Assembly: GCA_951406725.2 (NCBI GenBank) | Contig: OX597835.1 | Coordinates: 46,128,001-46,192,000 of the forward strand | Length of the DNA: 64,000 bases | Source: Octopus vulgaris | Lineage: Eukaryota | Direction of reading: 5' to 3' | Part shown: one piece after another, positions 3,241-62,192 of the stretch | Layout: the number at the start of each line of letters is the position of its first letter | Position numbering within the stretch: position 1 is the first letter of the stretch | Made by a program: the position numbers and the translations under genes | Notes under the pieces: generated by a model | Seen by the model: only the letters and a program-made list of their open reading frames with translations | The model's database searches: none | What the model was told of the DNA's origin: nothing

Positions 3241-3585
3241 TACATCAGAGTAAAGAGGAATGCTGTGAGAAGGATGCTGTGAGAATAATTAAGAGGGCCA
3301 CACTCCGAATGGTTTTATTGTGCAGCCTAACACCAAATTCTACGTCCCTGCGATCTGTTGGATCTTCATAACAAATGCTAGTTAATCCATGGGTGGTGTC
3401 CGGGCAGGTGCTACTACTCCGGTTCAGGGTAAACCTAGGAACAATAAAGGCTACAATAAGGTTCCACATTCCTCAGAATACTGAAATTTCTGAACGAGAG
3501 CCTCACTGGTGGATACATTTTCAAGTCGTATTTAGGAGAGTCCTACATATATCGTGGCATATATTACTAAATACATAAACACATA

Positions 3586-3750
3586 GGCGCAGGAGTGGCT
3601 GTGTCGTAAGTAGCTTGCTAACCAACCACATGGTTCCGGGTTCAGTCCCACTGCGTGGCATCTTGGCCAAGTGTCTTCTGCTATAGCCCCGGGCCGACCA
3701 ATGCCTTGTGAGTGGATGTGGTAGACGGAAACTGAAAGAAGCCCGTCGTA

Positions 3751-3835
<85 letters not shown>

Positions 3836-4055
3836 TTGTGTGTCTGTGTTTGTTCCCCTAGCATTACTTGACAACCGATGCTGGTGTGTTTACGTCCCCG
3901 TCACTTAGCGGTTCGGCAAAAAGAGACCGATAGAATAAGTACTGGGCTTACAAAAGAATATGTTCCCGGGGTCTATTTGCTCGACTAAAGGCGGTGCTCC
4001 AGCATGGCCGCAGTCAAATGACTGAAACAAGTAAAAGAGTAAAAGAGTAAAAGAG
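3586..4055 (+). mobile_element. tRNA-derived SINE family A, full length
   Basis: A-box TGGCTGTGTCG, B-box GGTTCAGTCCC, CORE-like TTGGCCAAGTG, internal (TA)n(TG)n, (GTAAAAGA)n tail; many copies in the window. Confidence 0.9.
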
Positions 4056-4122
4056 CATACATTAATAAAAGGGAACTCATAAATCCTTACGCTTGCAATG
4101 TACATAAATACTCCCTGACAAT

Positions 4123-4351
4123 TACTCTTTTACTCTTTTACTCTTTACTCTCTTTTACTTGTTTCAGTCATTTGACTGCGGCCATGCTGGAGCACCGCCT
4201 TTAGTCGAGCAAATCGACCCCCGGCACTTATTCTTTGTAAGCCCAGTATTTATTCTATCGGTCTCTTTTGCCGAACCGCTAAGTGACGGGGACGTAAACA
4301 CACCAGCATCGGTTGTCAAGCAATGCTAGGGGGTCAACCACAGACACACAA

Positions 4352-4388
<37 letters not shown>

Positions 4389-4547
4389 CGACAGGCTTCT
4401 TTTCAGTTTCCGTCTACCAAATCCACTCACAAGGCATTGGTCGGCCCGAGGCTATAGTAGAAGACACTTGCCCAAGATGCCACGCAGTGGGACTGAACCC
4501 GGAACCATGTGGTTGGTTAGCAAGCTACTTACCACACAGCCTGCGTC
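4123..4547 (-). mobile_element. SINE family A, inverted relative to 3586-4055
   Basis: Reverse complement of the adjacent copy; tail-to-tail with a ~67-bp spacer. Confidence 0.9.
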
Positions 4548-4879
4548 TATCTTGTTTTTCTATCTAAATCTAATACATTTTCTGTTCCATTCTTATGCGA
4601 TTATTCAATTTCGTAATCTTTCTCGTTCCAGTAATCCCAACAGGATTCTGTGCCTCTGTTTCTACGTATCTAATTAGCTTCTTACCTATCTATCACTATA
4701 CCTAGATATATACCTGTCCTTATAGTTATATGTACATCCATATCAACGTATTGATTTGGGTTTGTTTAAACCCACTCATGTGTGTGTATATATTTATATA
4801 TAAAAACATACATATGTATGTATACATATATGTATGTGTATGTGTATGAATGAGTGTATGTGATTCTGAGAGTTTGTAC

Positions 4880-9965: not shown

Positions 9966-10147
9966 TCGCCATGATAGATCGTTAGCCACTACACATATTT
10001 TTTCTCTCTTCGTTTTTTCTGTGTACCTTTCTGTAGAAGAGCGTAGGCTCGAATCGTAAAAGACTTTTTCTATTTCTGACCGTTATACTAATACATCTGT
10101 TTGTTTGTACACCACCTGTCTTCGTCTTATGTTTTTTCATAAACTCT

Positions 10148-10150
<3 letters not shown>
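9966..10150 (+). mobile_element. ~190-bp hammerhead-bearing PLE pLTR-like element in (TA)n
   Basis: CTTT-CTGTAGA-A-GAGC gtag GCTC-GAATCGT-A-AAAG at 10027-10062; family copies at 10202 and 36749. Confidence 0.65.
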
Positions 10151-10201
<51 letters not shown>

Positions 10202-10407
10202 CGGGAAGCTTTATGAAAATAAACAAAAGACGAAGGCAGGTGGAATACAAACAAACAATTGTATTAGTATGGCGCTCAGGAATATAAATAAAACAAGTCT
10301 TTTACGTTTCGAGCCTACGCTCTTCAACAGAAAGATACACAGAAAAGAAACACGGAGAGAAACAGGGAGAGAGAGAAAATGCGTGCAGAAGCTAGTGAAT
10401 CAACATA
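10202..10407 (-). mobile_element. Same family as 9966-10150, inverted; hammerhead-like motif at 10298-10335
   Basis: Minus strand reads TCTTT-CTGTTGA-A-GAGC gtag GCTC-GAAAC-GT-A-AAAGA. Confidence 0.7.
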
Positions 10408-10418
10408 ACACAAACACT

Positions 10419-10767
10419 AGGTGTATGTGTTGTCAGTTTGTCGTGCGGCTGCGCTTTTTAGGCGTAAGAGAATATATTCTCAATGCCCTTGGTGTAAAAG
10501 CACCGGAAAGCAGGCCATACCAAAGTGAGACAACTCACATGAGATCCCTTTGTTTTTTTCAAAGCAACAGAGATTGATGTTTCTTGATTGTTGTGACTTT
10601 GCAATGCCGTTCTGAAAAACAAAAAAACAAAAAAAAAAAGGATAAGATGTGAGCTGTCTCATTTGTCTATGATCTCTTTCGGGTGTTTTTACACCAATGG
10701 CATTGAGATTACATTCTCTCACACCTAAAAAACGCAGCCACCCGAATGTCTAGCAACACACAACCCT
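10419..10767. mobile_element. MITE-like element with ~125-bp diverged terminal inverted repeats
   Basis: GGCTGCGCTTTTTAGG...CTCAATGCC...GGTGTAAAA...TGAGACA.CTCACAT is mirrored at ~10637-10762. Confidence 0.75.
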
Positions 10768-10821
10768 TCTGTATGTGTGTTCGACTTTCTTTATATACCT
10801 CGACCTCCTTCTAATTCATAT

Positions 10822-11395: not shown

Positions 11396-12234
11396 GAAAT
11401 GATGTGACGTTGTGTTGAGACCTTCATGCATTATCCAAGGACATTACTCACATAACTGTTATAAAAATACGTTTCTAGCTCAGGTTTGTCAGAAGTTTAC
11501 CTCCTATATTGCTTACGCTGGCTGTCGCCATTAAATGTTAAAATATTGTGTTTTTTTTTATTAACAGTATCTACTCACAGATCTGTCCAGTGAAGGGAAA
11601 ACATAACATAAAATATAAGAGGAAAACACATATATTATGAGAGTTTTTTTTACTTTAATATTGATTTTAGTTGTATTCTAGTGTTATTGTTTATATTTTC
11701 GCGCTGTTTTCTTTGTTCAGTTTTCTCTTTCAATTCCAATTTTGTCTTGTTTTGTTTTTAATGTACGCTAGAAATATTTATTACTTTGAAAGTGATAAAA
11801 GCTATATTATAAAATACTATATCATATGTTTTTATGTATCGATCTCTTTAAAGATAAATACAAGCCGAGATCTTTCCTGCGACCTCCTTTTTTTCGATTC
11901 TCTCATATAAGTATTACTTCAGTTGTCTTACTTCGATAACGCTTAAGTGAAAGATGTTAAGGTCGAAAGGTCTCCTGGTCTTATATCTAGTCGTAGTTTA
12001 AAAAAAAAAATAAAAACAGAGGAAATTTGAAAAATCGGCCTTCTGCCTTCTCAAAGGAGAAATAGGTGAAATAGCGTAAAATACATTTTATCACGTTACA
12101 TGACTTTTGATATAGAATGATATACGAGAGGTTTGGATGACTAACACCAGGAAATCGCATCATATGTGCAGGCATGCTTTGCGATTTCCTAACTACGTGA
12201 TCTCGTGTTCAATATTAACGCATATATATAAGAC

Positions 12235-12560
12235 GCCCCTGTCCTTGTACTATCCACCATTCATGTTTTTTATTTCTGTTTTTTATTTCTATTTTTGTTT
12301 CTTGTATTTATATTCGTGTGGCATCCTGTCTTTGTTTTGTATACATTCGTCCTCTTTCTAAGAAATCTAATGCCTATGACTTAGTTCTTGGGGCTGGCCG
12401 GTTCGGAGTAATATCGAGATTAAACAGCCGAAATTACTAAGATGATCCGGTTCCCGACTGAAGATTAGAGGCTTCGAGTGACCCGTCTGTTTTCTTGTGT
12501 CGTCTCTTTGTGTGTTTTTGCGTTCTTGTCCCACTTTGTAATTTATATTTTATATTTAAT
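12235..12560 (+). mobile_element. TA-adjacent repeat carrying the permuted hammerhead motif (diverged copy)
   Basis: Aligns with ~32455-32758; boundaries approximate. Confidence 0.65.
12392..12464 (+). ncRNA. Candidate non-circularly permuted hammerhead ribozyme with kink-turn (copy 1)
   Basis: GGCTG g CCGGTTC gGA GTAA-TA-TCGAGA ttaaa CAGCC GAAA TTAC taa GA t GATCCGG t TCCCGA CTGAAGA; predicted cleavage after 12413. Confidence 0.7.
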
Positions 12561-12566
12561 TTCTAT

Positions 12567-12638
<72 letters not shown>

Positions 12639-12959
12639 CTTTCTGTTTCTTCCTTTCTGGGTCGATAAAATAAGTACCAGTTGAGAACTGCTGCCATTGT
12701 AATCAACTTACCTACTCTTTCAAACTTTCTGGCCTTGTGCCAAAATTTGAAAGCAATATTTCGGCATCTATTGTAAAGTCCACGGTTCAGTAACGAATTT
12801 AGAAAGAGACTAAAGCATGTTTTAAATTATTTCCTAAACTCTCAGGACGCTTATGTTTAGGACTCCCACGAGTTCCAGGGTTCATAAATCTGGGGTTCAA
12901 CCCGGTTTTCATGGTGTCTCGGTCACTAATTTTCTGACATTCTTCTCTAAACGAGAAGC

Positions 12960-14640: not shown

Positions 14641-15025
14641 AGGCAACATGGATCATACCGATGATGACGACTCAAATTTAATAAACAGAAATTTAATAAA
14701 GAAGCTTGTTGTTGACTTTAATCATATCAATTTCCTTTGGTACAAAATCCTATTCTACCACCTACATTAGTTTTGTATTTCTTCCTTTTGAGGGATGAGT
14801 ATGTCCTTGGGTTGCAGTTTTCAATCAACAGTTAAGTACGAGGCACTCATATCTGTTGCTTCAGGAATTTTTGTCTTCTACTTGGGTGCGAGCCATATAG
14901 TACTTTACTATTTACAAGGAATAGTCGTCGTAGATTCGAACGTGTTGCTGTCCAATTGTTATTTTTATGTCACTTTTCAATCTAGATCTAAACAGATTTA
15001 GTAGTCCTGTGGCCATTACGTCTTT

Positions 15026-15066
<41 letters not shown>

Positions 15067-15082
15067 TGTAAATTCCATAGTC

Positions 15083-15460
15083 TTTTCAAAGAAGCTTGAG
15101 AGGCGGTTGGATGGAATCTACACTCGCCTCCTTATGAGAGCTCAAAATCTCTCGTGGAAGCGTCATCCAACCAAAATGCAAATATATGGGAAACTACCAC
15201 CCGTGTCATCTCTTGTGAAAGGTAGGAGAGTCCAGTTTGCTGGACATTGTTGTAGAGCTGAAAAGGAGGCAATTTCTCCTCTTCTCCTCTGGAAGCCATC
15301 TACTCGCAATACCCGAGGACGCACACTTTCCTACCCTGATGTAATCTCCAGGGATACAGGCATTCAGCAACAGGACCTCCGTAATGTTATGATGGACCGC
15401 GAAGTCTGGCGTATCATGGTAAATTCCATTGTCTCGACCACGGTCGAACAATGATGATGA
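15083..15460 (+). mobile_element. 5'-truncated RTE-clade LINE (ORF C-terminus)
   Basis: LDGIYTRLLMRAQNLSW...RRVQFAGHCCR...MMDREVWR; (TGA)n tail directly after the stop. Confidence 0.85.
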
Positions 15461-23399: not shown

Positions 23400-24099
23400 A
23401 GACTGCGGCTATGCTTTTCTTTTTTTTTTTTTTTTTTTTGCAAGCCTGGTAATTATTCTATCAATTATTGGCGAACCAATAATTTACAGGGGGACTTAAA
23501 TAAGACGACATCGGTTGTCAACTGGTGGTGCAGAACAAACAGGAGTATAAACACACAACCTCACACATACACACACATACACATACACATAATCATGTAC
23601 AACGAAGGCGGCGAGTTGGCAGAAACGTTAGCGCGTCGGGCGAAATACGTAGCCGTATTTCGTCTGCCGTTACGTTGTGAGTCCAAATTCCGCCGAGGTC
23701 GACTTTGCCTTTCATCCTTTCGGGGTCGATAAATTAAGTACCAGTTACGCACTGGGGTCGATGTAATCGACTTAATACCTATGTCTGTCCTTGTTTGTCC
23801 CCTCTGTGTTTAGCCCCTTGTGGGTAATAGAGAAATAGGTATTTCGTCTGTATTTACGTTCTTAGTTTAAATTCCGCCGAGGTCGACTTTGCCTTCCATC
23901 CTCTCGGGATCGATAGATTAAGTACCAGTTGCGTACTTGGGTCGATCTAATCGTCTGGCCTTCCCAGTAAAAATTCCGGGCCGTGTGCCTTGAGTAGAAA
24001 AGATACTTATGTAGGACGAGTTTCTGCTCACCAAATCCACTCACGAGATTTTCGTTGGCCCAGGGTTGAGGAGCAAACATCTTACCATACAGCCACGCC
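23400..24099 (-). mobile_element. Old SINE family A copy split by a family B insertion
   Basis: 3' part 23400-23590 (CATCGGTTGTCAA); 5' part 24015-24099 (ACCAAATCCACTCAC, CTTACCATACAGCCAC). Confidence 0.65.
23606..24003 (+). mobile_element. Dimeric SINE family B with Meta/MESC-like central domain
   Basis: GCCTTTCATCCTTTCGGGGTCGATAAATTAAGTACCAG domain present twice; tRNA-like head. Confidence 0.85.
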
Positions 24100-29595: not shown

Positions 29596-30379
29596 GTGTG
29601 ATACCGAGCTTTACCGGTGAATAAAATGCTCATTATATGATCATGTAAGAGCAAGTGGTGGTAGATTTCACAGTCTTACGGAGCCTTAACTTAATTCCTC
29701 AGGCTGGTTCTGCACAGGACACTCTGTAACACGTTCGGACCTATGAATTTTAGGTACCGTCCATCGGGTTTTCGATGAAACTACTGCGGTTTCAAGCCAT
29801 GGAATCTCACACAATATCTCTTGATTATGGATCGGTTGTGGATTGTGGATCAGCGTGTGCTTCAAAATATATTTGGCTGATTTGTCTGTTAGATCGAACA
29901 GACACGCTGTCATCGGTTTCTTTGACGTTGATTGCTTAATACAAAGAATCGCATTATGCTGTATTGCTTTTAACTTTATATCGCTAATGTTCTTTCATCA
30001 GTTTGTCTTTTAACTTAATTCTTAAATCAATACTTTGTTCAAGAGTAGAAATCAAACAAAATATTCCTAAAATAGTTGAATCTTAACGAATTTTGACTAG
30101 ACGAGATCTCGGGAAACACAAGTGACACACACACATTTGCATACAATTTCATTCAAAATATATTTGAAGAAAATAAAGTATTCTTTTTTAAAATTTTAAG
30201 ACAAAGTCGGCAATTTTGTGGAGAGGAGAAGTTGATTACATCGACTGCAGCAATTTCGGGGAGAGGGCAAGTGGATAAGATCTATTCCGGTGCTCAGCTG
30301 GCACTTACTTTGTCAATCCCGAAAGGATGGGGGGGGGGACAGACTCAACCTCACCGGAAATAGAATTCAGAACGTAAAT

Positions 30380-30748
30380 ACCTGTAACGAATACGTTAAT
30401 TCCAGAAATGTAATTATTTTCGTTATGTCCACATTCTAAGAAATACATCTTGACTGAATTTAAGAACAGGCCACCGAACACATTGCTTATATGCCCTGTG
30501 CTATTCCCTTCGTCTGCTTCCTTCGGAGCGTTCTTTGGTTTAAATGTCATCTGCTTTAAAGCAACTGTCAAGCCGTCTTGTCGTATTGAAATATGGCGCA
30601 GTAAATGTGTCGCCCACGAAATTCTGTGTAGCTGTAATTAAGTGAGACTTGTGTTTTTTTTAATTATTATAACACTTTCTGTAGTCTCTTAGCTGATCGA
30701 GTGCTATTCTAATTGTTACAGTCTCACCACATGCATGCATACATATTC

Positions 30749-30796
<48 letters not shown>

Positions 30797-30842
30797 CTAT
30801 AATGTATACATATAGATATATATATATAAACACAGATATATG

Positions 30843-30882
<40 letters not shown>

Positions 30883-31321
30883 CATAATGTATATACATAT
30901 ACAGATACATATATATACACATACATATATATCTATACATATATAAAAAGAATGCAAAAATGGGAGAAGAACGCGACAAGTGACAACAAAACATCCAGAC
31001 AGTTGAATGATTCAAAAAAGGACATGAAAAAACAAGGACGGGTCATACGAAGTTTTCTTTCGTCAGTCGAGTTCCAAATTATCTTTGCAGTTTCGGCAGG
31101 TTATACTCGAGATTGCTCCAATCTTGCCAGCCCCAAAGAAAATCTCAGCTAAGAGCCTTAGATTCCTTGGAAGAAAGCAGCGAATGTTTACCAAATCCAG
31201 GACGAAAAAAAAACACGGAGAAATGGTACATAAATACAAATATAAAGAAGAGGTGTCTTTCAACTAAGGACGAATTACATTAAGCTGGCTTTTGTGGCAG
31301 GGACATAAGAGATGACAAGCT
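30380..31321 (-). repeat. Inverted duplication of 32382-33320
   Basis: Mirror ORFs in the track; differences seen are a 3-bp indel and microsatellite-region variation. Confidence 0.95.
31060..31132 (-). ncRNA. Permuted hammerhead candidate (duplicate of copy 2)
   Basis: Exact reverse complement of 32571-32643. Confidence 0.65.
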
Positions 31322-31752
31322 ATCTTGATGGCGGTGGCCTCATGGAGCTGACCATGGCAGCGATTATTCTTATATCTATAAGAATGCCATATTAATATGG
31401 CGATAACAATTATATTCGGTCATTCAAAAATGAAAAAAAGGAATTATGCATTGTGCTGTATGCTTCTTAAAACAATGCTATTTTCAAGCTGCAACACTTC
31501 CTCTTAATACTTTTCAAAGGCAAGGCCAATCAGGAGCGAAACAACAATAATTACCCTTCCTAAAAGTTACGAAGACAAAGTTGATTTTTAAAATCATTTC
31601 TGTTATAGAGAGTGGCCCTAACCCCAACGGATAGACCTGAAATCTTGAGTAATGCGTGGAAAATCAGTTTTAAGCGCAGGACCTTATTGCTGTATCTTAT
31701 CGTATTGTATCTAGCGAGGGAACCCTATTCCGTTGAGCACTTTGTGTATATG
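31318..31752 (+). repeat. Direct duplication of 38774-39207
   Basis: 435 bp with 2 substitutions and 1 indel seen. Confidence 0.95.
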
Positions 31753-31929
31753 GGGGGGACAGATGGGGGGGGGACAGACTCAACCTCGCCGGAAATAGAA
31801 TTCAGAACGTAAATACAAAGGAAACGCCGGTTAACATTTTGGCCAGCGCTAAGGATTCTAGCAACTCGCCGCCATGTAATGCAACATGATAAAATGCCGA
31901 ATATATATGTGTGTGTATGTGTCTCTCTT

Positions 31930-32197: not shown

Positions 32198-32199
<2 letters not shown>

Positions 32200-32758
32200 T
32201 GGCCTTCCCTTCATTTTCTCTCCTTTCTTCCTCTCACTTCACTCTCCCTTTTCTCTCCCTAATTCTTCTATCCCTCTGGCTCTACTTTTCTCCTCTCCTA
32301 CCACGTGACTGGTATTCTGCCATGCCTGACCTTTCTTTCTTGGTTCGACTACCATCCGTGCAACATCTATATTCCTTCCCAAGCTTGTCATCTCTTATGT
32401 CCCTGCCACAAAAGCCAGCTTAATGTAATTCGTCCTTAGTTGAAAGACACCTCTTCTTTATATTTGTATTTATGTACCATTTCTCCGTGTTTTTTTTTCG
32501 TCCTGGATTTGGTAAACATTCGCTGCTTTCTTCCAAGGAATCTAAGGCTCTTAGCTGAGATTTTCTTTGGGGCTGGCAAGATTGGAGCAATCTCGAGTAT
32601 AACCTGCCGAAACTGCAAAGATAATTTGGAACTCGACTGACGAAAGAAAACTTCGTATGACCCGTCCTTGTTTTTTCATGTCCTTTTTTGAATCATTCAA
32701 CTGTCTGGATGTTTTGTTGTCACTTGTCGCGTTCTTCTCCCATTTTTGCATTCTTTTT
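32198..32758 (+). mobile_element. ~560-bp TA-embedded element carrying the permuted hammerhead motif
   Basis: Flanked by (TA)n on both sides; pyrimidine-rich 5' part; homologous to 12235-12560. Confidence 0.65.
32571..32643 (+). ncRNA. Candidate non-circularly permuted hammerhead ribozyme with kink-turn (copy 2)
   Basis: GGCTG g CAAGATT gGA GCAA-TC-TCGAGT ataac CTGCC GAAA CTGC aaa GA t AATTTGG a ACTCGA CTGACGA; flanks TTTTCTT/AAGAAAA pair; predicted cleavage after 32592. Confidence 0.7.
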
Positions 32759-32839
32759 ATATATGTATAGATATATATGTATGTGTATATATATGTATCT
32801 GTATATGTATATACATTATGTATATATATATATATTCAT

Positions 32840-32882
32840 ATATCTGTGTTTATATATATATATCTATATGTATACATTATAG

Positions 32883-32951
<69 letters not shown>

Positions 32952-34007
32952 ATATGAATATGTATGCATGCATGTGGTGAGACTGTAACAATTAGAATAG
33001 CACTCGATCAGCTAAGAGACTACAGAAAGTGTTATAATAATTAAAAAAACACAAGTCTCACTTAATTACAGCTACACAGAATTTCGTGGGCGACACATTT
33101 ACTGCGCCATATTTCAATACAAGACGGCTTGACAGTTGCTTTAAAGCAGATGACATTTAAACCAAAGAACGCTCCGAAGGAAGCAGACGAAGGGAATAGC
33201 ACAGGGCATATAAGCAATGTGTTCGGTGGCCTGTTCTTAAATTCAGTCAAGATGTATTTCTTAGAATGTGGACATAACGAAAATAATTACATTTCTGGAA
33301 TTAACGTATTCGTTACAGGTCCTTAAATTCTTTAAGAGATACAGTTTCTCGAAAAAACTCATAGAATATCGTTTTAACACATTAATATCATAAACATTAT
33401 GAATGATTTTATTGTGTCTGGGGCATTAATTTAACACACTCGCTTGATTACCACTCATTTACTTATTTATTAAAATCTCGTTGCGACTTGCAACCTTTTC
33501 AATTGTCGTCGACTATTGAAGAGAATGATCCTCCCCAGACGCAATAAAATATGCTTCAACACACGAATTCGCATAAAGAATCTTGCAAACCAAAATACAA
33601 AAACGAAATTATTAATCATTCTAGACGAAAATTACCGAAAATGTTTCTTAGCTTGAAAGTTTTCGTTTGAGAAATACATCTTGACTGAATTTAAGAACAG
33701 TCCACCGGACACATTGCTGATATGCCCGGTGCTATTCCCTTCTTCTGCTTCCTTCGGAGCGTTCTTTGGTTTAAATGTCATCTGCTTTAAAGTAACTGTC
33801 AAGACGTCTTGTCGTATTGAAATATGGCGCAGTAAATGTTTCGCCCACGAAATTCTGGGTAGCTGTAATTAAGTGAGACTTGTGGGTTTTTTTTTTATTA
33901 TTATAACACTTTCTGTAGTCTCTTAGCTGATCGAGTGCTATTCTAATTGTTACAGCCTCACCACATGCATGCATACATGCATACATGCATACATATTCAT
34001 ATATATA

Positions 34008-38640: not shown

Positions 38641-38868
38641 TAATTGTTATCGCCATATTAATATGGCATTCTTATAGATATAAGAATAATCGCTGCCATG
38701 GTCAGCTCCATGAGGCCACCGCCATCAAGATAGCTGTTGATACAGATATAATGGATACAGATCGTGTATCAATAGCTATCTTGATGGCGGTGGCCTCATG
38801 GAGCTGACCATGGCAGCGATTATTCTTATATCTATAAGAATGCCATATTAATATGGCGATAACAATTA
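38641..38868. repeat. Palindrome with perfect 95-bp arms containing nested palindromes
   Basis: 38641-38735 is the reverse complement of 38774-38868; pairing continues ~11 bp into the spacer. Confidence 0.95.
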
Positions 38869-39319
38869 TATTCAGTCATTCAAAAATGAAAAAAGGAATT
38901 ATGCATTGTGCTGTATGCTTCTTAAAACAATGCTATTTTCAAGCTGCAACACTTCCTCTTAATACTTTTCAAAGGCAAGGCCAATCAGGAGCGAAACAAC
39001 AATAATTACCCTTCCTAAAAGTTACGAAGACAAAGTTGATTTTTAAAATCATTTCTGTTATAGAGAGTGGCCCTAACCCCAACGGATAGACCTGGAATCT
39101 TGAGTAATGCGTGGAAAATCAGTTTTAAGCGCAGGACCTTATTGCTGTATCTTATCGTATTGTATCTAGCGAGGGAACCCTATTCCGTTGAGCACTTTGT
39201 GTATATGTGGTTCCCCCTGTCAGTTTATATCTGGTGAAAGTTTATTATATATCAGGCAATAAAGTTACCATCCTTGTAACCATGTCTGTAGAATCATGCG
39301 TAGGATACTATATAATGCT

Positions 39320-39530
39320 TTTTAAAATTTTGGCAGAAGGAGAGGAATTTTGAAGAAGGGGTTTAGTCGATTACAGTGATTCCAGTGCTCAACTGGTACT
39401 TATTTTATCGACATCGAAAGGATAAAAGGTAAAGTCGACCTCGCAGGAATTTAAACTCAGAACATACAGGCGGAGGAAATGCCGCTGAGCATTTCGCCCG
39501 ACGCGCTAACGGTTCTGACAGTTGGCAATC
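39320..39530 (-). mobile_element. SINE family B
   Basis: ACTGGTACTTATTTTATCGAC..GAAAGGATAAAAGGTAAAGTCGACCTCG. Confidence 0.8.
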
Positions 39531-44150: not shown

Positions 44151-44585
44151 AAGGCGGTATGCTGGCAGAATCGTTAGCACGCCGGCCGAAATGCTTAGCG
44201 GTATTTCGTCTGCAGTTACGTTCTCAGTTCAAATTCTGCCGAGGTCAACTTCGCCTTTCGTCCTTTTGAGGTCGATTAAATAAGTACCATTTACTCACTG
44301 GGATCGATATAATCGGCTTAATCCTTTTTTTCCTTGTTCGTCCTCTCTGTGAGTATCCCCTTGTGGGCAATAAAAAAATAAGAAACGTTAGCCTGTTGGG
44401 GGTGGGGAATGGTTAGCAGCATTTCGTCCGTATACACGTTCTCGGTTCAAACTCCACTAAGATCGTTTCTGCCTTTCATCCTTTCGGGGTCGATAAGCAA
44501 GTACCAGTTGAGCTCTATGGTCAATGTAATCAACTCACCTACTCTCTCCAAATTGCTTTCCTTGTGTAAAAATTTTAAATCAAAA
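44151..44585 (+). mobile_element. Dimeric SINE family B
   Basis: Same two-unit layout as 23606-24003. Confidence 0.85.
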
Positions 44586-44994
44586 TTTATATTTGCTACC
44601 CAGCTAAGACGAGGAGGTCTATGTTGTCATTTGGTCCGATAGAATTAACGGGCAAATTTTCTTTGAAATCACGCCAAGCCCTTAAGTTCCTTGAACACTC
44701 GGCTTTGGAAAATGTACTTATAGATTTATATATAATAAAGAAAAACGAATTAGTACAATCAAGGTTGAAATACATATTCATGGCCCTCCTTAGTAACGTT
44801 TTTCCTAAACCCTTAACAAGAACTATAACAAAAACTGTTATGTAGAAGCCAACGACTTTCGTCAGCTAGTCTGGGATATTCAGCAGCCAACATGAGAGAA
44901 CAGCCGACTCCTGAATTGGAAGTACCCATGAGACAAAGAGGGACCATCACTAAATCTCAGACCATGCGTGTGTCCGTATTTTTTCATTTTTAAA

Positions 44995-60574: not shown

Positions 60575-60835
60575 TGTATGTGCAGATTTGTATCTTTTGT
60601 TTTATGTATGTATTCTCGATATGCTTATATATATATATTTAAATGATAAACTTCTGGAAATTTTTACAGATTTTTACAGTTCCAGTTTTAGACTGGATCT
60701 GTAGTTTTCGAATTTGCTTTCTCTTTTCTTGTTTAGAGAAGCCTAATTTCTCAAGATTGGTATTTAGGTAGTGTGTTACATATCCCAGTACCCCAATAAT
60801 TACAGGTATAAACCTGAAGTTGTAATCTGAATAGT
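60575..60835 (-). mobile_element. 3' end of a restriction-like-endonuclease LINE in (TACA)n
   Basis: DYNFRFIPVIIGVLGYV..LEKLGF..KLQIQSKTGTVKICKNF*; TACA-type repeats on both sides. Confidence 0.65.
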
Positions 60836-62192
60836 TTATGTATGCATGCATGTATGTATGTATGAATGTATGTGTGTGTATATATGTATGTATGCATGTA
60901 TATATGTATGTACGTATGTATGCATGTATGTATATATGCATGTATGTATGCATGTATGTATATATGCATGTATGTATGCATGTATGTATATATGCATGTA
61001 TGTATGCATGTATGTATATATGCATGTATGTATGCATGTATGTATGTATGTATATATGTATGTATGCATGCATGTATGTATGTATGCATGTGTGTATTTG
61101 GTCGATTTTAGCGCGCTCGAAAAATTGATAGAGTGACTATAGGCATGACTAGATAATGTCAAGTGTATTTCATGTGTATCAGATTTAAAATTTGCCTAAT
61201 GTCTTCTTGCAATCCCATGATATATAAAATCCTTTATATATAGCACAATGCGTATAAACCAAAGTAATAACCACACGCCATTATGAGCATTATAATAGAA
61301 ATGAAAAGTTTGGCACGCCAAACTGTAATGATTCGCGATTTATTAATTTTGCGGTCGAGACAATGTACAATATCACTTCTAAGCTATAATAAAAGAGGCA
61401 GAGATTTTTTGAAATCCTCATAGCGCATGTTATGGGAAATCAGGATTTATTGGCGTTTTTAAACTTAAGATTATGGTACAGTGGTGGTTAGTGTGAAGAT
61501 TATCTGTAAGACAGAATTCGCAGCACGTCCTGCCTTTCTTAATAGTTTTTATGTTATTTAAGTCTGTTCATAAGACGTTCGTGATTTCTTGTGTGTGTTT
61601 TTGATTTTCGACGGCAAACCACACGGACATCAAGTTTAAACTAATCTCAAAATGTAATAACTTTCTCAAGAAACCCAGCAGTATCCGTACGTAGACGAAT
61701 ATCCAATTCAGCTATCTCAACAATACTAGCAAATGGACAGGTAACATACCTAGAACACCACGGTTGACACCTTAATGGAACCGTTTTATATATTGATGTA
61801 ATGCACCATATATATGGATGTAGTGCACGTCGATTGTTTAATAGGCACCGGTGCCTATTACATAGTCCACGACTTGTTACAATAGAGCATTTACTAACAG
61901 CATCTAACAGTCCGAATATGTTATGAAAAACTTTTCATGATTTAAACCAACATTCAACATTGGTATTAATAGATTGATACTCTTGGTAATCATATTTTAC
62001 TTCTAATCGGAACGCATGTCAAAATACAAGTCAAAATATTTTGCTCGACAAATATATTATTTAAAGGAGTCATTGATCTACGAAAAGTACGAAATGAAAT
62101 GCGTTAATATAACAAACAACAGTTCTATATACAGTTCTATATTTAAGATATGAGGAATTATGTACCTTATTTACATTACACCATATACCCAC

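Follow-up and report, generated by a model that had tools for sequence, protein, structure and literature searches.

The motif and its copies in the window

Three copies of a putative hammerhead ribozyme with a non-circular strand order lie in the window, the stretch of 64,000 nt of the Octopus vulgaris genome analysed here (contig OX597835.1, positions 46,128,001 to 46,192,000). Copies 1 and 2 (12392-12464 and 32571-32643, plus strand) form a gapless 73-nt alignment with 20 differences, which reproduces the alignment of an earlier sequence-only reading of this DNA; the block positions of that reading, with H17 at 12413 and 32592, are likewise confirmed. Copy 3, at 31060-31132 on the minus strand, is identical to copy 2 across all 73 nt and sits within an inverted duplication (30369-31321 versus 32382-33331, 96.7%). 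The stems had been described as being in exact register and the blocks do lie so, but both copies contain mismatches that had gone unmentioned. Copy 1 displays one A-C mismatch in stem I (1.4) and one mismatch in the k-turn helix. In copy 2, stem II contains a U-U, the k-turn helix an A-G and the position adjoining the U16.1-A15.1 pair an A-C, so that this is a decayed copy; copy 3 is affected at the same three places and is decayed as well. A scan of the whole window against Rfam returned no family at gathering score. The features of the three copies are collected in Table 1.

Table 1. Features of the hammerhead motif copies and of the units that carry them (window coordinates).
Feature	Position	Strand	Basis
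Copy 1: 5'-truncated unit of a non-autonomous Penelope-like element, family 1	12229..12569	+	blastn with L029 unit, 93.9%
Copy 1: extent, unit positions 447-792 of 801; ends at (TA)n run	12229..12569	+	sequence
Copy 1: P0 5' strand, pairs with 12467-12480, closes whole domain	12344..12355	+	fold with ribozyme interior excised; ddG permutation
Copy 1: hairpin P-1, 3' end abuts G10.1	12358..12391	+	same excised-interior fold; shuffle comparison
Copy 1: stem II 5' strand (G10.1-10.5)	12392..12396	+	covariation, block placement
Copy 1: k-turn non-canonical helix 5' strand (12398-12404), 3n G, GA of non-bulged strand	12398..12407	+	
Copy 1: block S, stem III 5' strand 12408-12412, H17 = A12413, stem I 5' strand 12414-12419	12408..12419	+	
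Copy 1: predicted cut, after H17 = A12413		+	
Copy 1: block G, stem II 3' strand 12425-12429, GAA, stem III 3' strand from A15.1 (12433-12437)	12425..12437	+	
Copy 1: k-turn bulged strand, 3-nt bulge, GA, 3b U, helix 3' strand (12444-12450)	12438..12450	+	
Copy 1: split block C, stem I 3' strand 12452-12457, CUGANGA 12458-12464	12452..12464	+	
Copy 1: P0 3' strand	12467..12480	+	
Copy 2: 5'-truncated family-2 unit; 3' end approximate, at TA-rich run	32199..32760	+	blastn with L056 unit (32199-32337, 32379-32716)
Copy 2: P0 5' strand (32517-32532) and hairpin P-1 (32533-32570)	32517..32570	+	
Copy 2: ribozyme core; predicted cut after H17 = C32592	32571..32643	+	
Copy 2: P0 3' strand, begins directly 3' of A9	32644..32659	+	
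Copy 3: core; predicted cut after 31111	31060..31132	-	

The window contains further repeats. Part of the spacer of the inverted duplication is repeated at 99% about 7 kb away (31318-31755 and 38774-39210), self-inverted (palindromic) repeats of 67-95% identity occur at 3568-4566, 10001-10362, 10408-10778 and 38641-38868, and copies of an abundant SINE-like repeat lie at 12638-12761, 23702-23774, 39321-39435 and 44466-44588, one such copy standing directly 3' of the (TA)n run of copy 1. Short frames at 15005-15454 (plus strand) and 60639-61136 (minus strand) presumably resemble C-terminal pieces of non-LTR retrotransposon proteins.

Architecture of the motif

Numbered according to the hammerhead and k-turn conventions and read from 5' to 3', the first half of the motif consists of the P0 strand, hairpin P-1, the 5' strand of stem II, the k-turn helix, a GA, stem III, H17 and stem I. 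The second half runs through a linker, stem II, GAA, stem III, the bulge with its GA, the k-turn helix, stem I, CUGANGA and P0. The blocks thus follow the order S-G-C, in contrast to the circular order C-G-S of hammerhead types I, II and III. This departure from the circular types had been recognised in the sequence-only reading and is supported by the family-level covariation presented below, as are the 5' placement of the stem II strand and the split at A9/G10.1 that it proposed; the helix that it placed beyond the tandem G-A pairs is supported by covariation across families. Three covarying stems surround the core, with the pairs G10.1-C11.1 and A15.1-U16.1, and the predicted k-turn is composed of a 3-nt bulge and of G-A and A-G pairs between two covarying helices, position 3n being a G in the window families. 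Since some Naiad elements contain a SECIS, this reading was also considered and set aside on inspection: the UGA lies in the 3' strand, and the arrangement of the helices matches a hammerhead.

Copies across the genome

In the 2.8-Gb genome, which is rich in microsatellites, the two families present in the window had 3,175 and 1,966 candidates at a first look by DNA search, and the 40 candidates scored for each family display 87-100% identity. Among these BLAST-found copies, which were not selected by any pattern, N7 is the sole freely varying position of CUGANGA, the GAs of the k-turn are near-invariant and the core CUGANGA/GAAA/UH is intact in 30 of 34 family-1 and 28 of 36 family-2 rows (overlapping loci counted twice). 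A pairing-blind pattern, which fixes the letters of the core and the k-turn and includes neither base pairs nor the upstream stem II strand, matched the genome 7,907 times compared with 29 times for its reversed control, and a variant forcing a different stem II matched 987 times versus 18.

The loci examined yielded 213 motif instances (151 unique) that group into 37 clusters. One natural copy from each of 24 of the 37 clusters served as representative, the other 13 clusters being 5'-truncated, mis-parsed or decayed singletons of families already included; three of the representatives are non-medoids and loci L187-L206 were hand-picked for diversity. H17 is C, A or U in 14, 8 and 2 of the 24 representatives, respectively, H itself having been required by the pattern, and G10.1, paired with C11.1, is present in 21. 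C11.1, A15.1 and U16.1 are fixed by the search pattern, as are the k-turn GAs in families other than the BLAST-found ones. The 3b-3n pair varies among the representatives (UG in five, UU in four, CC in four, and others). Relatives of the L183 family (L223 minus strand, around 300-420 on the plus strand; L245 minus strand) retain the same order with an internal loop that lacks G-A pairs, and thus forms without a k-turn also occur in this genome.

Covariation of the helices

The sequence-only reading had proposed covariation across many genomic copies as a check of the motif, and covariation is found in the 24 family representatives. When 5' and 3' strands were exchanged between the 24 families, with the same best-of-offset rule applied to own and swapped strands, stem II retained 107 Watson-Crick pairs as against a swapped mean of 75.7 ± 3.8, stem III 77 as against 40.6 ± 4.5, stem I 127 as against 67.8 ± 7.1 and the k-turn helix 105 as against 76.0 ± 4.3. 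In none of the four helices did any of 20,000 swaps reach the observed number, the families being related by descent, so that these permutation counts are not counts of independent events and carry no correction for relatedness. Within this one genome stem II is represented by no fewer than eight distinct versions, each of them complementary. A structure-blind MAFFT alignment of 22 representatives and two window copies contains several rows with a shift in stem II. Pairing is found in 82.4% of its 547 cells, compared with 25-47% for slid partners, and both sides vary in 21 of 23 pairs, a number reached by 9 of 500 shuffles. Minimum free energy z-scores of five single copies are 0.57, -0.30, 0.67, 0.54 and -3.18, obtained with a program that cannot fold pseudoknots.

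The strand directly after CUGANGA forms only 0-3 of 5 Watson-Crick pairs with stem II at offset 0 in all 24 representatives, which rules out an intact block C; a P0 strand occupies this place instead. With the core excised, this strand pairs with a strand located ~45-60 nt upstream. In 19 of the 24 representatives (L204 spurious) and in both window copies the P0 helix starts 0-2 nt 3' of A9, while hairpin P-1 ends no more than 2 nt from G10.1 in 16 of 23 representatives, compared with 7.3 for shuffles. In the permutation of P0 ddG among the 21 representatives with intact flanks, 0 of 20,000 permutations reached the observed value; the count of P0 pairs adjoining A9 was not significant (2,244/20,000), and the first, unconstrained duplex test of P0 was weak (213/20,000). 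In the present model the A9/G10.1 gap is bridged by two helices, P0 and P-1, which is new over the first model. The chain had been proposed to be open between A9 and G10.1; it is indeed split there, but with these two helices it would not simply be open, and the construct limits suggested previously (12375-12490 and 32550-32670) would cut through P0/P-1. A crude geometry, with a rise of 2.8 Å per step, gives a gap to close of ~28 Å when the arm is kinked by 50 degrees, compared with 64 Å when it is unkinked.

The host units are Penelope-like

The units that carry the motif close to their 3' end are Penelope-like (PLE, Penelope-like element), measure ~780-800 nt, target (TA)n and form tandems. 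The unit length is 801 nt in family 1 and 780 nt in family 3, and neither holds an ORF; the 5' ends vary, some copies are partial and inverted, and the tails are short. In the available part of PMC8557442, Penelope-like elements are marked by partial tandems, by inverted copies truncated at the 5' end and by tails, and all of these are found here together with a fixed 3' end; from these end marks the ribozyme lies on the sense strand of the element. Family 3, first found in L053, is very young, since 40 of 40 scored matches are 100% identical in C1-C3 alone. All 24 of its insertions examined end at one base, 150 nt downstream of the predicted cut and followed by a TA-type run, and eight of the 24 are head-to-tail multimers. 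Examples of this family are found at L093:1660-2439 and in L081-L110, in a genome in which only decayed Naiad RT was found. Partial copies show no accumulation of 5' truncation points at the predicted cut and insertions run through it, so that the template would be a circle or an uncleaved multimer; by analogy, such a template agrees with the Poseidon element described in the accessible text of PMC11167929.

A search for GIY-YIG led to a young autonomous PLE (L237:1945-4287, also in L238-L241), composed of a 781-aa frame with RT and C-terminal GIY-YIG and an upstream frame of 330-480 aa without a Pfam match. The split hammerhead motif was looked for in the repeat of this (TA)n-flanked L237-type PLE and is absent from it; the element is a candidate trans-mobiliser of the units. 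The same repeat contains a putative type-I-like hammerhead look-alike (L237:5265-5325 and L223:2468-2510) with U3/A8 in place of C3/G8, a palindromic stem III and, in L237, a weak stem I. In 14 sequencing runs guessed to be RNA, 38-49% of query words are present, and the assembled contigs of four such runs each cover 29 of 30 bins, such contigs being uninformative on ends, strand or cleavage and on the difference between a genomic tandem and a circular RNA of the kind in which non-LTR retrozymes accumulate.

Relationship to Naiad elements

Family 4 corresponds to the 3' end of Naiad_Ovul/Obim, in the sense of the ORF, and the Obim/Ovul form of the motif has 315 exact matches in the genome versus none for the control. 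In L125 and L277 the motif is preceded, in the same sense, by the C-terminus of a Naiad RT, and three of 37 further RT remnants (C1-C5) are accompanied by the motif in the same arrangement, where ~0.004 would be expected. Searches for Naiad RT recovered remnants only (84 matches among 141 scored; 150 of 267 candidates scored) and no intact Naiad ORF was found in the genome, the longest frames reaching 263 and 292 aa. Similarly, a 21-nt pattern for the Naiad 5' ORF had no match in the genome search, and no Naiad RT was found in twenty further family-4 flanks. The link of the window families to Naiads therefore lies in RNA architecture and (TA)n targeting. Naiads join an N-terminal GIY-YIG and a C-terminal RT in one element; the units described here are of ~780-800 nt and without an ORF and only family 4 is tied to RT remnants, so that families 1-3 may be called Naiad-derived by inference.

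Read by eye, 10 of the 54 published Naiad consensi in the consulted part of the supplement display the split form, covering five phyla from ctenophore to octopus (one ctenophore, Naiad-3_Chem, Amil, Aacu, Anas, 2_Movir, Plae, EuTe, Obim and Ovul). By the same reading each has complementary stems of its own, stem I of the ctenophore entry being 2 bp, and all ten possess P-1 and P0, the latter short in Obim and Ovul. The k-turn proposed in the sequence-only reading is found in the window families but is not universal: G-A k-turns are seen by eye only in the octopus Naiads, while other lineages carry a bulge or branch at this place. The k-turn thus seems to be the cephalopod solution, with bulges or junctions in other lineages. 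Six consensi of the nematode block were read by eye as type CSG, with an intact block C and a long 'I' helix; the remaining 38 of the 54 show neither the split form nor CSG among the matches listed. These counts derive from CTGANGA matches in the Naiad file and parts 9, 12, 19 and 24 of the PMC8557442 supplement, of which 60 of 62, 30 of 43, 23 of 23 and 15 of 25 were viewed by spelling, line breaks possibly hiding some. By eye, the motif is absent from the 3' ends of Naiad-1_Chem, Naiad-2_Chem, Naiad_Omin, Naiad_Dcar and Naiad_Ppla. The Clytia elements Naiad-1_Chem and Naiad-2_Chem have in common two other conserved, apparently structured 3' motifs, possibly another ribozyme, and several arthropod Naiads carry a CCCC-CUGACGA context that parses as neither split nor CSG and is possibly a further variant. 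Craig et al. 2021 (PMC8557442), in the sections available, report no canonical hammerhead in Naiads and flag 'HHR_core' and 'HHR_half_core' matches, including one in Naiad_Ovul; since Naiads were reported without canonical hammerheads, the split hammerhead is probably their missing ribozyme.

Comparison with known hammerheads and k-turns

Comparison with Rfam and with published rearranged hammerheads, also suggested in the sequence-only reading, gave no Rfam match and identified as nearest relative type SGC (HRIMA-1 and variants; Eckert et al. 2023, PMC10085705). As far as the available part of that paper describes it, type SGC has the same S-G-C order, the full core consensus, a short linker from stem I to stem II and a helix that connects the remaining strands of these two stems; this 'I' helix, as it is called there, seems to be the equivalent of the k-turn helix. 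In contrast, block C of type SGC (stem I strand, CUGANGA, stem II strand) is assumed to be unbreakable and the chain is open beside stem III, while the octopus motif is split at A9/G10.1 and bridged by P0/P-1, with stem III joining the 'I' helix on both strands. The motif therefore has the order and the stem I/II linking helix of type SGC without its uninterrupted block C. In the same text six permutations are defined on the assumption of an uninterruptible block C, SGC and CSG are validated in vitro, SGC is found only in metatranscriptomes and, of the RNAs presented, only GCS-1 comes from the genome of a known organism. The S-G-C order being already published, novelty does not extend to the block order and resides in the split C block and the animal genomic setting. 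Type CSG, in the sections of PMC10085705 consulted, follows the same cyclic order, to which the six nematode-block Naiad consensi conform by eye, and differs in its intact block C and in being known from two metagenome sequences without element context.

The units share with Naiads, as described in the accessible part of PMC8557442, (TA)n targeting, partial tandems, inverted 5'-truncated copies and 30-40-bp tails, and differ in that those of the window families are without an ORF. Non-LTR retrozymes and minimal PLE hammerheads, in the portions available of PMC4209133 and bioRxiv 10.64898/2026.07.22.740005, likewise derive from PLE pseudo-LTRs and are organised as tandems of non-coding units, with a single hammerhead in every unit. 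Their hammerheads are circular type I, often minimal and dimeric, in contrast to the non-circular split form of the ~780-800-nt octopus units; the octopus units are thus non-coding tandems with one hammerhead each that is not of type I. With the standard k-turn (Kt-7 type; PMC4382518 and PMC5061560, as far as accessible) the predicted octopus fold has in common the 3-nt bulge, the tandem G-A/A-G pairs, a canonical helix (stem III) and a non-canonical helix; it differs in being built into a hammerhead arm, where it occurs in the cephalopod families and is absent from the other Naiads read. By the rule given for k-turns in that literature, folding to about 50 degrees takes place in Mg2+ or upon binding of L7Ae. 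No description of the split form was found in literature searches whose coverage is thin for subscription papers and supplements, and a hammerhead with two helices inserted at A9/G10.1 was likewise not encountered in the literature consulted. The available parts of PMC3088659, PMC13725137, PMC10162972 and bioRxiv 10.64898/2026.09.16.752053 contain no such variant; PMC13725137, in its accessible text, mentions hammerhead variants with additional helices by citation only.

Proposed mechanism and alternative explanations

Conservation, covariation, element context and strand back the motif, which is real, conserved and, judged from these features, very probably a ribozyme. The favoured reading, to which we assign a probability of about 0.68, is a cis-folding, self-cleaving, non-circular hammerhead near the 3' end (pseudo-LTR) of Naiad-lineage elements and their non-autonomous derivatives; catalysis, three-dimensional path and role are what we infer from the pattern. 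One RNA would fold the ribozyme in cis. Stem III and its extension would form a long hairpin whose 20-nt loop holds the 5' strand of stem I and the 3' strand of stem II, and the k-turn, replaced by a bulge or junction in other phyla, would bend the extension back, so that the strands at its far end could pair with the loop as stems II and I. These far-end strands would bring G10.1 and CUGANGA to the core, and P0 and P-1 would bridge A9/G10.1 in the manner of a four-way junction, keeping A9 beside G10.1. Tandem or read-through transcripts would be processed by cleavage after H17 to RNAs of one unit, presumably able to circularise, as in retrozymes, and reverse transcription would begin ~150 nt downstream, at the TA run. 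RNAs of types SGC and CSG cleave in vitro (PMC10085705, in the part available), and in a related PLE, a Poseidon element, cleavage is protein-assisted and dispensable for in vitro insertion (PMC11167929, accessible sections).

As the stem III extension is uninterrupted on both of its strands, a monomer needs a sharp kink to fold and may be entangled. Closure of a monomer looks hard in Naiad_EuTe, with a stem III of 10 bp and a 1-nt bulge, and in the Acropora Naiad, whose stem III is ~12 bp. The strain imposed by the long unkinked stem III of Naiad_EuTe favours a hammerhead that needs a dimer, or two neighbouring units of a tandem, for its activity, with the tails of one unit paired to the loop of another; this would limit cleavage to multimeric transcripts as in minimal PLE hammerheads. 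Metazoan PLE hammerheads do work as dimers and are weak alone according to the available part of PMC4209133, eight of the 24 family-3 insertions are head-to-tail multimers, and a UCGA palindrome occurs in stem I of several families. In contrast, most lineages place a kink element at the same position (k-turn, 3-7-nt bulge or three-way junction), for which a domain swap has less need, and most entries possess a stable stem III of 4-6 bp, compared with the 1-2-bp stems of dimer-dependent hammerheads. Activity restricted to dimers or adjacent units is unlikely, though less so than the other alternatives. Somewhat more doubtful is a conserved structure with hardly any or no catalysis, acting as a binding or packaging signal for RT/EN or for a k-turn-binding host protein. 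This would accommodate the insertions that cross the predicted cut, the in vitro insertion of the Poseidon element left unaffected by hammerhead mutants (PMC11167929, in part) and the 3b-3n pairs, some of which would need a protein to kink by the rule given in the accessible portion of PMC4382518; against it, the pattern of hammerhead chemistry is kept, with N7 free, H17 as C/A/U and G10.1 in 21 of 24 representatives, and the split form was recognised by eye from ctenophores to octopus.

Inherited repeat similarity combined with chance, without a selected RNA structure, could be invoked because the representatives are related and some were hand-picked, the core letters are fixed by the pattern and the single-copy z-scores are unremarkable in four of five copies. 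The latter come from a folding program blind to pseudoknots, while the complementary stem II versions within one genome (at least eight), the drop to 25-47% with slid partners and the like pairing of unrelated stems in five phyla largely refute this explanation, which is now highly improbable.

Significance

On balance, and with somewhat less assurance than for the cis-folding hammerhead itself, the octopus motif would stand outside the scheme of six permutations as a seventh natural form of the hammerhead, its chain split at A9/G10.1, a four-way junction spanning the gap and, in cephalopods, a k-turn closing the structure. It would represent the ribozyme that had so far escaped notice in Naiads from ctenophores to octopus, with the nematode CSG as the same cycle permuted, and the first non-circular hammerhead in animal genomes, in thousands of copies that include a currently amplifying retrozyme-like family. 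Since nematode Naiads carry CSG of the same cycle, one lineage would record the interconversion of non-circular permutations, and the natural series (split with k-turn, bulge or junction, and CSG) would allow the origin of permutations to be studied. The arrangement would break an explicit assumption of the permutation scheme, the unbreakable block C, and move non-circular hammerheads from metatranscriptome RNAs of unidentified origin into animal genomes. It also offers a possible answer to why Naiads, among the most abundant invertebrate PLEs, seemed to be without the hammerhead typical of other PLE clades, and provides a natural candidate for a k-turn-dependent ribozyme that could be regulated by a host protein. 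Standard descriptors and Rfam miss the split form, and thus counts of animal ribozymes and retrozymes may be too low.
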